Shown here: positions 21,001 to 23,683 of the stretch, in pieces
Layout: each line of letters opens with the position of its first letter
How positions within the stretch are numbered: the first letter of the stretch is position 1
NCBI GenBank assembly: GCA_038997165.1
Contig: JAWBAK010000001.1
Span: 61,926-125,925, forward strand
Length of the DNA: 64,000 nt
Origin: Candidatus Aenigmatarchaeota archaeon
GTDB lineage: Archaea; Aenigmatarchaeota; Aenigmatarchaeia; CG10238-14; SpSt-28
Reading direction: 5' to 3'
The notes under the pieces: model-generated
Told to the model about the DNA's origin: nothing
Databases searched by the model: none
The model's input: only the letters and a program-made list of their open reading frames with translations
Position numbers and translations under genes: made by a program

Positions 21001-23683
21001 AGATCAAATTGGAAGATATGTAATAAATGTAATTGCTTATGATAAAAGTGGTAACAAAGCTGAAAAATCTGCAATTTTTGATGTTAGGCCGCTAATTTTC
21101 TTTAGTGGTATTGCAAAAGATGAAGAAAGCATAGATTATGTTCCATTAAACGTTACTTTCGAATTATATCCAGCAGGAAGGTATGAAATGTTATACAGAA
21201 TAGTTCCTGACGAAGAAGGATATTATAATGAAACAATAGAAGCGATGTATTACGATATTGTATATAAATTCTTTAATGAAAGCTTAGTAATCTCTAATAT
21301 TGGATTGTTTGATGATGTATTTAATCCGATAGTATTAGGAATACCGAGAGAAGTTATTTTACCAAGAGAAGCAATTAAAGGTTATGTTTTAGATAGTATT
21401 CTTAAATCATCCTCTACCTTAATATTCGATATAAGCAATTTAGATGCTAGAAAGCATGATTTAAGATTATTAGGAATTTATCATTGCGCAAACTGGACAA
21501 GATATATTGGCTGCAATTCAACTTGGATTAGACTAAACTCTATAGTTTCTTTACAAAGCTTAAAAGTTTATGCAACAAACATAAGCGAAATTAAGGGTGC
21601 GTATATTTTAGCTCAATATGTTTGTGGAAATGGAATATGTGAAGATAGATTTGGTGAAAGTAATGCAATTTGTCCATTAGATTGTCCAGCTGCTGGAGCT
21701 CCAGGAATTCCAGCTCCAGGAATTGGAGCACCTGGAATAGGGGCTGGAGTAGGAATTCCTGCAGTTCCAGCTGCTCCTGGAGTAGGAATAGGAGTTGGTG
21801 CTGGTGCACCAACAATAACCATTCCACCCTATGAAATATTTACTAAGGAAATTAGTGTAACATTAAAGCCAAAAGAACATATAATTGTAAGTGTTGATAT
21901 AGGAAACAATAGAAATAAAGATATTAAAGTAAAGTTTAAGCCAGAAGGATTAATTTGGGAATTTGTTCAATTAGAAGCAAACGAAATTGAAATTAAAGCA
22001 AGTCAAAGAGGCACGATAAAAATGAAAATATTTGCTCCAGAAGAAAAAATGCCAGGAATCTATACAGGAGATTTGGTTGTTTATATTGAAAATGAAACAT
22101 ATAGAATTCCAGTAACAATTAAAATAGAGTTACCACCAGAACCTTTGCTTGACGTAATAATAAATGTATTAAGAAAAACAATAGAACCCAACGAAACTTT
22201 AAAGGTATTTGTTAGAGTAGTCAATATGGGTCAAACAGAAAAAGTAGAAGATATTGTTTTAACTTACATAATAAAAGATTTATTAACTGGAGAATTATAC
22301 AATGTTTATAAAGAAACTATAGCTGTAGAGACAGCAACTTCATTTACAAGAGAAATTACCTTACCAGAAGGAATTAAATTAGATAGAAAATATCTAATAG
22401 AGGTTAATGCAAGTTATTGGTATGGAAGAAAATATGCATATGCAGCAGATACTTTTGAAGTAGTTTCATTACCCATACCTTTAAAAATACTTAGAAGCCT
22501 ATTACTAAATCCAGTAACTTATATTGTTACTTTTGGAATTGCACCAACCGCTTATTTAGCTCAAAAAGCACTACAAGCCTATAAATTAAGAAAATTAAAA
22601 GAAAAGAGATATGCATTACCAATAGATTTTGATAAATTACCAAAAGCAGGTCCTAATAGTATTGAAGTTGGAAAAATTGCAGAAACGGATGTAAAGGCAT
22701 ATTTTGATATGAAGCAATTAATAATGCATACTATTGCAGCTGGTGGTACTGGAAGTGGTAAAACTATAAGTGCTATGGTTGTTGCAGAAGAATTATTAAA
22801 AAGAAATATTCCAGTAATAGTTTTTGATCCTACAGCACAATGGACTGGCTTCATAAAACCAAATAAAGATCCTACTATGCAAGCCTTTTATAAACAATTT
22901 GGATTAAAACCAGAAGATGCTAGAGGATTCAAAACAAATATAATTGTTGTAGAAGATGTGGATATGCCACTAGATATTAAAAAGTATATGAATCCAGGAG
23001 AAATAACTGTTTTTGTATTAAATAGATTAAAAGCAGATGAATTAGATAAATTTATTAGAAGAAGTATTGAAGCTGTTTTTGAAATGAAACCACCAGAATC
23101 GAAAGAACTCAAACTATTATTAATATACGATGAAATTCATAGAACTTTACCAAAATATGGAGGTAAAGGTGGTTATATAGCTATTGAAAGGGGAGCAAGA
23201 GAATTTAGAAAATGGGGAATTGGATTATTCTTAATATCTCAAGTATTGTTAGACTTTAAAGGAGCAATTAGAGCAAATGTTGCTACAGAAATTCAATTAA
23301 GAACAAAATATGAAGGAGATATAAATAGAGTAAAGCAAAAATATGGAACAGATTATGCAAGCAAAGTTACTAAATTGACAATTGGTACTGGAATTGTTCA
23401 AAATCCTGAATATAACAATGGTAAGCCTTGGATAATTCAATTTAGACCTATTTTACATTCAACTTTCGCATTATCAAAAGAAGAGCTAGATACTTATATG
23501 AATTTAAGAAAGAAGTTGGAAGCATTTGAAAAAGAAGTTGAAAATCTTAAGGCAAGAGGAATTGATACTTTCGATATAGAAAATGAAATAAAACTTGCTT
23601 GGGATAGATTGAAGCAAGGAATGTTTAGAATGGTTGAAACATATATTGAAAGTATTGAAACAAATCTCAAACGTTATAAATAA
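2..23683 (+). CDS. Giant surface (adhesin/S-layer-like) protein, 5'-partial because the ORF continues upstream of the window; single C-terminal TM helix and cytoplasmic HerA/FtsK-superfamily P-loop ATPase domain
   Basis: The frame containing the ATG at 917 has no stop codon from nt 2 to 917. Codons 2-916 were translated by hand and give a protein-like sequence with the CARDB-like motif NIYNDGPGNASNVIV, so the true start lies upstream of the window; the ORF track's 917 is only the first in-frame ATG. The ORF is uninterrupted for 23.7 kb in an AT-rich genome and ends at TAA 23681-23683. N-x-S/T sequons are extremely dense. Domain order is described in the sub-features. Confidence 0.85.
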   Translation, partial: LNFPLFFACGNFSTKLQVFNKGNLPAYNFRINETKSDILKTHPGDLIFYGFNPSNPYLEQSKLISWDGGINFIATGKDNAINFTYSIFVPYQTNGTFSFQALALNNTFSFFDEEYIISISCGASLSIDQIRIRKGEYPEPTIYVNDIFNISANIYNDGPGNASNVIVWINYTNVTQIRGLENLKIYNSNGEESNIIYLGNILPKETKIAFNDYYFTVNTSGVSPGIIRFCINANATENSTIVSSCRDITINAPPALIELENPIAISKETGSSFGSWSFNFTFNVSVRVSNSENDVQICAWFSKTGMEPFKLIGCDIYPAPGNNIGSWRNYSFEYSPSCEDIGNPVFIKFNATNFAGSSNSTTLPFTITKSKIVFDEILGNNTETRRGKMPTILGVRVKDINGTYISNLPLRFYVSLNEIVFDAGNTVYTNESGYANYNFLAVCTPKYLVGYQKWKAELKDNECYFDNSTENYFDLRVLVTGDILLYIVRPDGSTNYTQEDTITFLGYVTDDCGDPLTASVIFFANHSIESFECSDVTQVGSNAYTCDWHTEITTPMGWYNVSMYVEKEFHYSNWSIKAKDPGLFYLEPIYKLEDPQAYPIREGWGYKNWNFSVFASSGDSENEFDVNIYLGDLWPPAKPCEECINITPKTCFNCYKQLVVFLRNFTAYEIGTWYYRFSLGPTSTTQVKYVIVEKDDTTMEYVSGNNSIVIRNSQPALLSVRVFDLDANTYELNPPALVTFKLYDEKYPNGYKVIGSVYTNSSGYANLLLNITECTGWLEGIQKWSAEIDDNDNYYKKSSIGNFTIEIQLPGCQPQVYIYSIELPKEAFQYKNFTIVTYVTSWVGDAEGVYINITLPDGWYTDEQTKYLGKIYANEFKKIYWNVYASTFGEGKAIFYINSSNAGYKRLESNNIVVYKFSQSTINSIININSNDFEILEFDCETGNYRIANLTIKISENSNNSTLKIESFNSSNWIKIENNLEVISNSFYFIPILANQISSNSDGKCLVKITNVGDKNVIIESATLTSYYNETLKIDGIKVLVNNFEVESIDKTESSFNISVRIGNSLDINKDGNLTLKILKDGKEIYSNYKEFTINANSFTFINFTDIQTSNWEEGIYEIIAILNSSNEIKLLKREIVFSEIKIDITSPKYQCNSSTEKIYLEIYQPLEDYISYNISLQIPNNWDYNPKYIYLEPKGKGFYFAEFNLTAFSEIEEDYQIIIVINYTYANNTKSLIKPINIKVSPNIPILEIIRELPSLVSTSIVFKPRIVIHNKGCGIANNVTIKEYISAGWIGANPSIAKNEYANDPEVSDKDVDLIYSETDLINNILTWQLSDIKPNKYAVLTYQIKAPPTLFTAGYLKYNISWNNEYYIEEKIPSKVYTYRYPEESHLEFDLIAIQTLEYPWPEVRSIQVNREYNFTLKVTNIGDINTNNDWTIKLYIPKECEVINVENGIWNESERKIVWSLPNISTYQTSYFNFTLKCNEEKQYVLIAEGIRDTRSKVSFENSTSIYCESYSKPAYCYSKLDYILAKPTNARYEKLSNITIEFLNKYSGNNLTIGNSYIKIFDDLLNEHIIWQDYSFEEKNEIKTKQLIIYENQENFVSNIKTFEISSYSDATENTYTNISILKIYYTWDLGKLFNETQNLFIKSKVYDYTPLFRNAKLYINGNDSIKVGGWGEKFEFSVEVRDRFGRDVIVRMYHRKVGGEWSLVDEKVCYSCLEWTQFNFSYDYDYTDISNWEFKFEGINSDGISEYYGFVYTVEKDDVELTPIQPQWNETVLRAYGYNFTIYAFDIDNKTIPYVLEDYKAFVALGQYGNNLTYKIYTLSPSINESGYIILKVTNTEFCNPANNYYLGQNYWFGGIQGSAYYKDVNTRIPPYNALPYVLIGSLYNNIIYPINVNFSFELDTITLRGVVYDDCGNIRADEDMYVYFNLTNGDYNYQCIATRVGNEFQCTFNPRSLNAPLGWYNISMYSSKPLHTDGIYSVNNAFFLASIPKIINISINPFGGPWGLSPFNFSAYIIDEDGNFVNITHYLRKVPEQYFVAYIDNCTNCNYYLTSFLRNFVCDYENIEVGEWRYKIETKDEAGFSNTSQEISFTIEKEPINISLFESVPLINRSNVPNSKAYNLSVTIFDTILNRNVTEIPFVYLKLEGPATFTYEMEKDETQEKYYYEFLPGCSYPVGEYKWYSYVLNDYCYQNARSENYTINIYGSLSVNIISPTDYQIIPEGQSVTIRSNIIDDCGVSITNANVYYILRNERTQEEFRCPESGFANYDGTSYVCNFNTSGKPGGNYTIIAYASRNYYWDSLAIKENAFFLVTPVRIINVTMNYEHDGSWGEIHNFTALIDHYNDVIVCLLEKPIDAQEYQVTECKYVENPSGGKKVTFNRRYTCSNFVRSQFWNYKINATEPGVPSSYSESQEYQHMLQKNDLSLIIYYNDSEAKRYGDQRARLIVYAYDLDQKQAAYVSAYNSPNIKFNVYNGSSFVFVGANSTNSSGYSTLFFKPDCSFDVGIKEWYAYTEADACYKNVISDRSNITIVGLLNPYLVSPINEEYTRYAELYINLSAIVKDECNLITFENATVTFIAKSVAFGSEYLCSDVTYSNGYYNCSLNATLIEEGWYNVNVTASNVLYYDDYYYLQTNSFKIIHSLVPPVLSNEYAYPEQDGGWGERWYFRVNVSDLNGDDVNIYLWISRDRSNWELVNQTICYNCGYERTIELSYKGFTCEDYLNRPIYFKFNATDAYNSTDRNPIALYLDKNDLRIEYYSGNESKIIRNVGGILQARIYDLDFGDYADSQVALYVTTDRNNYKLVAINNSLNSIATLFFNPTCEFDVGLQYWKIGSYNDACYKNVNSSDFNLYVIGNIDANITYPKGDKFLRGSNVTLNISIFDECSENIPLENTKINITMISNRDKSIRYCTEIIELGNGLYSCTFNSSNFTPNYYNVTLNISKELYTNKTKTFSNVFWIETNPILFNLRAIPNVLGWGETLTIKVNFTDEDLDTHTINVYLIKSDYSRVRTRNILNVQGINVEASTQFTFTSADIGDWFVIVNVTDDFGIAEINTSITIEKDDTIIEYISGNNSIVHRIHNTTTFELRAIDIDNPSNNIYYQPAGFWVTSDYVNYIYIGTVYTGNNGYFNITFDPDCRFETGIQKWKGGLLENPNWKTSNSSEYFVIIVSDLSGNIIQPDGNILLRGVDSLNIRATVSDECKYVNGADVYFVVGNENINITCDNVINDNLGNYTCSLSSSTLEILPYGWNNITMFARKDFYENELVITKQNAFYLADKPKIEDVYVTSATWRWGTVFEFVGKLYDLDPDNKTVYLWISRDGSNWRLINQTTYYGPTPPGGVDIKLSFIPTCNDVGNWYFKFNVTDTSGYSSETFGYQFEILKRPAVISAISGLNKIIQREGSVSTTLRIKAIDAIDGANINNAKIKFITINKTGHEVTYETWTNQSGIASYIFDPDCSYGANKTYWKAILYNNSCYEDTVSPNFDIYIYGKLYNNLVAPSQGSTFPSRTTFNISYYITSDCSDEGLIENANAEIKVYDPLNQEIICTPIIEENGYYNCTFDTTGKRAGVYSITLNSTKQYYFGSYTNYPNWFSIYNSPPTYSNISVSPSIAPWTSILNFSVYVSDADNDVVRCSLEIKKGYSYIEVATMEINGNGLCSFLISDFSCDDIGTNYFRFSLSDGYNDIVYTEEQSFELTKSPVVLNLISGNGTSVRRNIASTNLRISVFDLVKNSLVGTSILPEAYVKFNITFDSLNYINLDEVSTTSGYAEVMFSPDCSFSAGTQYWYAYISENDVCYEFNQTNNFEVYVIGSLNPSIIEPTNLFKVYKGNNVSIRANIQDDCNENVSVDFIQINPISRITGQMFNCIVSEENIGIYNCSFETVDKPAGAYDIRVNVSKQYHVSAIYTESNAFFIETYPSLTNPSVTPIVEGWGKTRTFSITASDEDRDALYVCLYYRPKGSEDWSLASCRTKPSGIASQTLTFSRTFSCDNLLGQESIEYEFFFNVTDDDNNIAESEIKNFTLERDDISVSLAESYVEYNRSSTEKASLIISIRDLDANSYATRAVNATLYVTRIPGTTNYFIDNVYINRNPVLGNITFYFPQQNKCLYKVGPQKWYVSINSSCYKPANSPIGTLNITSLPLNSTLIYPIGEYFPQGYNIPITVEVYDDCEKVDGASLSIEVINPNNETIECYPVSNLGNGGYRCSFSDTYLLGSYTIKTQANKQYYPEGYINEFPNAFFITSAPFIDSTEVYASRTSSEEGGWGDTWFFKIRVYDEDQSFIEFEKLNISLYIDFGNGYEYISSQICEAPECASLKEFVFTHTFDCSKIGDNKKFKFIVRDFFNNTVESAEGYFNILPDEPQITILRKPTRINREGNFADMFNISVIDVDRGVPANATLTLFITTDSSNFNFYVNLNSVNGIATYSFDPDCRFSAGIQYFKVSTNDSCYKLKTSDIDEFEIIGSLQNYIIYPYRNSDILIEFGKIENITLNVKDECENDIENANVNLNAIWPNNYIENIPVYEENSGIYNATWNLSRKIGGYYSFVFNSSKEYYNSNSTLFLNWIYLNNTPPIIENISVNPLVGGWGETFTFSADVFDIQRDDVVCKLYVYTGKNTWLYKGSVTIKDGVGKCIINVSDFDCSDINVTSLNMFKFEISDVNNVFNTTEIFAPAIGKNDVEIYYVFGNNSFVNRAYYNTTLLSLRIFDKIKNTFVGSNVRGFVKVTKDGSNYGEEIINYTNSSGYLNVYFDPSGDYEVGIQKWLGGVLNDNCYLDKNSEEYYLTILGEIALSYFGIDREDARYLKPKDDITITIALQDDRGSYINDANVNITLIDEFNNKYICPISNLGGGTYQCSISTSVLAARWYNVSILAKKEYHLDLNVTFSNVFFIETEPKVYNISAISEENSNIGGWGETWKFVAIFEDEDLDRNEIWIQIKPENSENWYTVNSTIISGINKTTIELIVKDPGLLQQYLGIWNAQFYSIDNRGYISYSEIINFTVEKNDVRIELVEGNNSTVWRNNTESVTLKVRIYDLDQKIYVSSPSAKTYFFITYDGNVFDEGRETYTDNEGYSYIDFDPDCRYKTGVQKWVVKIINDTYYKDSSSQNFTLNIYSTLIPNVTFPDGHAFLVGELVPINVSLRDECEYVNKASVTIRVRYLATTYTCTPVNNIDNGIYNCVWDSSGKAYGGYDVIAIASKSFYASNSTTKPLAFYLASIPQLSNASVNPLVGGWGETFTFSVRLTDLDRNQNNVTLWKSYDNQSWIYVTSKLVTPTYAGYLVSFVVTFDCEDLLNGPLVYFKFSSKDQFGYYNESGIINVTFEQNDASLSIIEYNSSVRRLENNISYFLLRVYDSDRKVYPNNTEVTLYITENGNDYTIEIINQTYLGNVSFYYDPTCSSNVGIQKWYAKITDVCYKNVNTTERALTVIGQLYIDILNPKNNQILNRNTTYYFNSSVYDECNLIIDNANVSWFFGNTRIGTTYNVTYTIPFNYKLGLENVKANTSRIYYDPNEKVINVYVYGFADLTEIYPQTNSKFLAGEIVNLVCRVMDKNLNVPIEGYTVYFYRNDTLIGSSLTNSSGYATFSWSTVNELAGFVEMKCRITNDDIKYYNASISEISSLIRIRRPITIREISVTPNEIYRNDTFSPNIATIKVRTYDSIIAATSNAIVYFYNETDLIGNCTPDSFGYCSITYNPPNETNVGIKYIYINATPTIEGRENSDTYITSFIAKGKLYIQILEPSNSSIFAKSSTVNIRTYVTSENGENIPALYPNSRVNITNSSSIIGFAYPTGEANIYAGSFNLLDQKTGWLNISTIINIPYYDSAVDSIWILVTGLAGVEFTFPSNNQEITYPSTIYPTCLVKDLDSEIGIENYPVEFYYKTSSSDWIYVSTEITNSSGLANISFTTPSKGEFYFKCVISDNATLVYSAIYNESIVRILVKDLTPPEILETSISPTYDIEANRDFVNISAVVSDNIGISEVWAMIGLPNGSSVRVNMNKISGNLTYGFYSAIYIPPIGGEYNVTVFAKDLPPEANVNSSFAGIFYVFGKTNLELNVFPENIIADGITIYNGYPFEIIINVSNLGPATAYDLNITLFDDSGRIEYSTNIITISNISRYINISQMIMARVKEATPAQTINIFVNLSWRNPDLTYNYTVKRIFVIVAENPKLEIKPEYINEVVEHDTIKIIGSVNITNIGNVPITEILLSTDLNTPFYMYCLNCSISLFPTYQGFLAMGQSFISEITVSIPAGQDPGSYWSRILVSSKEAATVYSIINITVPINNSWIIDKEISGIILAPLGTKKEIDKINFSNIGNVNVTISIYLSGRGAELVRVENRSSFSFVLPKQKERLVSFSYDIPKTKNEGLYDVRVVMVSTDGYPNLREFIFTLNVTDIPPIIENVTFSKTDFEINETINVTAKIYDNIELDKAWINISYPNNTYEIKLLKKLQDDIFYENISSRIAGEIKISICANDTKGLTSCTEEFIIRAHSKTILDVLSEKIVFENVTLRNSQTKTVILNLTNLGFARAFNVSIKGEDEIFDITLTNVSLILAREIIPVIVNITALNGTYSGNYSAKINITWINLDGSIESKISLIPIEVLPVHLIEIENKTEYIKNNEERIVNISLSAVGNVNETNITLICSANCELFKIDLNETIDNIALGETIEIPIRVFVPSDLESGEYMVELKAYNEFTSATGYLKIIVPINISWEIYPIYEEIESVQGEELFRNITIRNTGNLRLLLNLSSIAINGSNFIYFENDKNFTTISLRVGETKIIPIKIVVPIVYDYSIFENRIVSLNFTTQSGLITKNSTFILKIHPLFVKIIEPTESNPLKRVVAGDTIYAKVNVSYGNETLTSNVSFQIFLSNETYRHEIENFTAQFLVIEKLWLLTFIAPNLTEGIGYDLIVNATYLLKNVSKIDVEPKSIIYLDTIPPEIEIIIPARIRVNTSAIFWFNITDLGGVESANAIIIKPDSNISEYNLTFVKRIGSTYIYKLEFNETDQIGRYVINVIAYDKSGNKAEKSAIFDVRPLIFFSGIAKDEESIDYVPLNVTFELYPAGRYEMLYRIVPDEEGYYNETIEAMYYDIVYKFFNESLVISNIGLFDDVFNPIVLGIPREVILPREAIKGYVLDSILKSSSTLIFDISNLDARKHDLRLLGIYHCANWTRYIGCNSTWIRLNSIVSLQSLKVYATNISEIKGAYILAQYVCGNGICEDRFGESNAICPLDCPAAGAPGIPAPGIGAPGIGAGVGIPAVPAAPGVGIGVGAGAPTITIPPYEIFTKEISVTLKPKEHIIVSVDIGNNRNKDIKVKFKPEGLIWEFVQLEANEIEIKASQRGTIKMKIFAPEEKMPGIYTGDLVVYIENETYRIPVTIKIELPPEPLLDVIINVLRKTIEPNETLKVFVRVVNMGQTEKVEDIVLTYIIKDLLTGELYNVYKETIAVETATSFTREITLPEGIKLDRKYLIEVNASYWYGRKYAYAADTFEVVSLPIPLKILRSLLLNPVTYIVTFGIAPTAYLAQKALQAYKLRKLKEKRYALPIDFDKLPKAGPNSIEVGKIAETDVKAYFDMKQLIMHTIAAGGTGSGKTISAMVVAEELLKRNIPVIVFDPTAQWTGFIKPNKDPTMQAFYKQFGLKPEDARGFKTNIIVVEDVDMPLDIKKYMNPGEITVFVLNRLKADELDKFIRRSIEAVFEMKPPESKELKLLLIYDEIHRTLPKYGGKGGYIAIERGAREFRKWGIGLFLISQVLLDFKGAIRANVATEIQLRTKYEGDINRVKQKYGTDYASKVTKLTIGTGIVQNPEYNNGKPWIIQFRPILHSTFALSKEELDTYMNLRKKLEAFEKEVENLKARGIDTFDIENEIKLAWDRLKQGMFRMVETYIESIETNLKRYK
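820..16300 (+). repeat. Tandem array of at least 14 copies of a ~320-aa (944-996 nt period) four-part module inside the giant CDS; a ~2.2 kb insertion of different N-rich/CARDB-like domains (about 2700-4950) splits copy 1 from copy 2
   Basis: The G-W-G-E/Y core recurs at nt ~820 (GSWSF variant), 1808, 5021, 6017, 6998, 7991, 8945, 9889, 10850, 11804, 12800, 13766, 14741 and 15698. Each module carries in order: (a) xGGWGE(T/K)(F/W)xF...D(E/L)D; (b) SGNNSIVxRN...(R/K)(I/V)(Y/F)DLD; (c) GYAxxxFDPDC(R/S)FxxG(I/T)QKWxA...CYK; (d) DDCG/DEC...NxGxYxC(S/T)F...GxY. Confidence 0.7.
16300..21600 (+). other. Stalk region of giant protein: about 3-4 bacterial-Ig-like (Big/invasin-like) domains (about 16550-17800), then about 8-10 CARDB-like beta-sandwich domains with NxGxxxA/T motifs
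   Basis: Ig-like examples: YTVYFYRNDTLIGSSLTNSSGYATFSWS and VEFYYKTSSSDWIYVSTEITNSSGLANISFT. CARDB-type motifs: VSNLGPATAYDLNITL, ITNIGNVPITEI, FSNIGNVNVTISIY, LTNLGFARAFNVSI, SAVGNVNETNIT, RNTGNLRLLLNL. Motif-level assignment only. Confidence 0.45.
21623..21685 (+). other. Small 4-Cys module CGNGICEDRFGESNAICPLDC inside giant protein
   Basis: Read directly: C-G-N-G-x-C-E ... C-P-x-D-C with four Cys in 21 residues, immediately before the Gly/Pro linker. It is the only Cys cluster in this part of the protein. Confidence 0.5.
21686..21808 (+). repeat. Elastin-like Gly/Pro/Ala/Val/Ile low-complexity linker (41 aa); local GC island inside the giant CDS
   Basis: Translates to PAAGAPGIPAPGIGAPGIGAGVGIPAVPAAPGVGIGVGAGAP. 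The nucleotides are GC-rich (cca gga / gct cca repeats) in an otherwise AT-rich gene. Both minus-strand frames stay open here by composition, which explains the spurious ORFs at 21591-21827. Confidence 0.85.
22499..22561 (+). other. Single transmembrane helix of giant protein (LLLNPVTYIVTFGIAPTAYLA) followed by a K/R-rich stretch
   Basis: A 21-residue hydrophobic segment followed by QKALQAYKLRKLKEKR (positive-inside rule), which gives an N-out/C-in type I topology. About 7,400 aa are extracellular and about 370 aa cytoplasmic. Confidence 0.7.
22650..23440 (+). other. Cytoplasmic HerA/VirB4/FtsK-superfamily P-loop ATPase domain (DUF87-like) at C-terminus of giant protein
   Basis: Walker A IAAGGTGSGKT (22736-22765). 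Walker B LLLIYDEIH (23114-23140), a DEAH-like DEIH. The downstream block EFRKWGIGLFLISQVLLDF...ANVATEIQLRT matches the HerA pattern (EGRKFGVGLxLxTQRPS...vlsqcnt.i.lRl). It ends in a short coiled coil. No NurA-like partner lies nearby. Confidence 0.75.

Follow-up and report, generated by a model that had tools for sequence, protein, structure and literature searches.

Sequence analysis places a giant DPANN cell-surface protein with a C-terminal HerA-clade ATPase in the SPEARE family

The giant protein encoded in the window (the whole 64,000-nucleotide stretch of Candidatus Aenigmatarchaeota DNA analyzed here) is a genuine cell-surface protein of over 7,890 amino acids from a tiny symbiotic DPANN archaeon, and the ATPase at its C-terminus is a member of the HerA clade within the FtsK-HerA superfamily. 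Judged by its homology to the type member, the protein is of the SPEARE type, a design that is already known.

Results

A single uninterrupted reading frame runs from nt 2, at the window's left edge, to the TAA stop codon. Because the frame is already open at nt 2, the window covers at least 7,893 amino acids of the protein, whose N-terminus is outside it. Hence, the ATG at 917 is rejected as the start of the open reading frame. Toward the C-terminus follow, in this order, a transmembrane helix, a K/R-rich stretch, and the P-loop ATPase, behind which the protein ends in a tail of helices. The transmembrane helix, the K/R tail, the Walker motifs, and the HerA-type block all lie where the sequence-only reading had placed them (Table 1). 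The P-loop domain is also present, with its size corrected from about 260 amino acids to an ATPase core of about 290 amino acids followed by C-terminal helices of about 68 amino acids.

Table 1. Features of the C-terminal part of the giant protein and their positions in the window.
Feature	Sequence	Position (nt)
Transmembrane helix	LLLNPVTYIVTFGIAPTAYLA	22499-22561
K/R-rich tail	QKALQAYKLRKLKEKR	22562-22609
Walker A	AAGGTGSGKT	22736-22765
Walker B	LLLIYDEIH	23114-23140
Motif	REFRKWGIG-LFLISQ	23198-23242
Motif	ATEIQLRT	23282-23305
Stop codon	TAA	23681-23683

The assignment to the HerA clade, narrower than the HerA/FtsK-superfamily motor originally proposed, is based on three agreeing lines of evidence. 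The ATPase matched Pfam DUF87 with 42.1 bits (cut-off, 23.2), a PDB profile search retrieved Sulfolobus HerA (4d2i; E = 3.9e−14), and the AlphaFold model of the ATPase (pLDDT 88) had HerA hexamers as its best Foldseek fold matches, with a probability of 1.0. These values, together with matches to both DUF87 and HerA_C in every one of the 37 members of the family, show that the similarity is more than chance. The motor is HerA-like; a restriction enzyme and VirB4 are rejected as its identity.

Could the ATPase have been joined to the giant open reading frame by misassembly? The same frame stays open to the edge of the available sequence in about 70 of 80 independent DPANN genome loci, extending up to 3,333 amino acids upstream. 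The same continuous frame in about 70 independent assemblies excludes an assembly artefact, and the proposed junction of ATPase and giant ectodomain through a single membrane helix is genuine and conserved.

The helix is only moderately hydrophobic (mean Kyte-Doolittle value of about 1.4, counted by hand) and scored below the cut-off of 1.6 in the hydrophobicity scan. It is nevertheless a conserved hydrophobic stretch across 82 homologues. Thr-Tyr and Pro residues in the helix are near-invariant. The giant ectodomain, rich in Ig domains and glycosylation sequons, contains 283 N-x-S/T sequons (108 ± 8 in shuffled sequences) and 120 Cys residues, whereas the 373 residues on the other side of the helix contain neither sequons nor Cys; 7 K/R residues are found in the 20 amino acids after the helix and 2 before it. 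The sequon and Cys distribution and the K/R bias support the predicted location of the ATPase inside the cell, as the sequence-only reading had it.

Discussion

That reading knew of no described family with this architecture, which was wrong. SPEARE proteins were described in Nanohaloarchaeota (Hamm et al. 2019, PMC6642349), with an Aenigmarchaeota homologue already in Table S3 of that work, and the family was re-analyzed by Reva et al. 2023 (PMC10266531). A direct comparison showed that the last 621 amino acids of our protein are homologous to, and colinear with, the C-terminus of the type member, the SPEARE of Ca. Nanohaloarchaeum antarcticus (35% identity, E = 2e−117). New with respect to the earlier work are the HerA-like nature of the motor, the near-invariant residues of the membrane helix, and the operon setting of the gene.

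As the sequence-only reading hypothesized, the protein may function in contact-dependent transfer of DNA or another substrate. Alternatively, the motor might power the secretion of its own giant ectodomain; however, such export in cis is made less likely by the motor being the last part of the protein to be translated.

Among the neighbors of the giant gene we found no nuclease, no polytopic pore protein, and no T4SS/Ced component. The gene lies in a conserved operon with genes for a coiled-coil protein and a second anchored surface protein of about 1,900 amino acids, and at a minority of loci the operon also includes a MinD-type ATPase.

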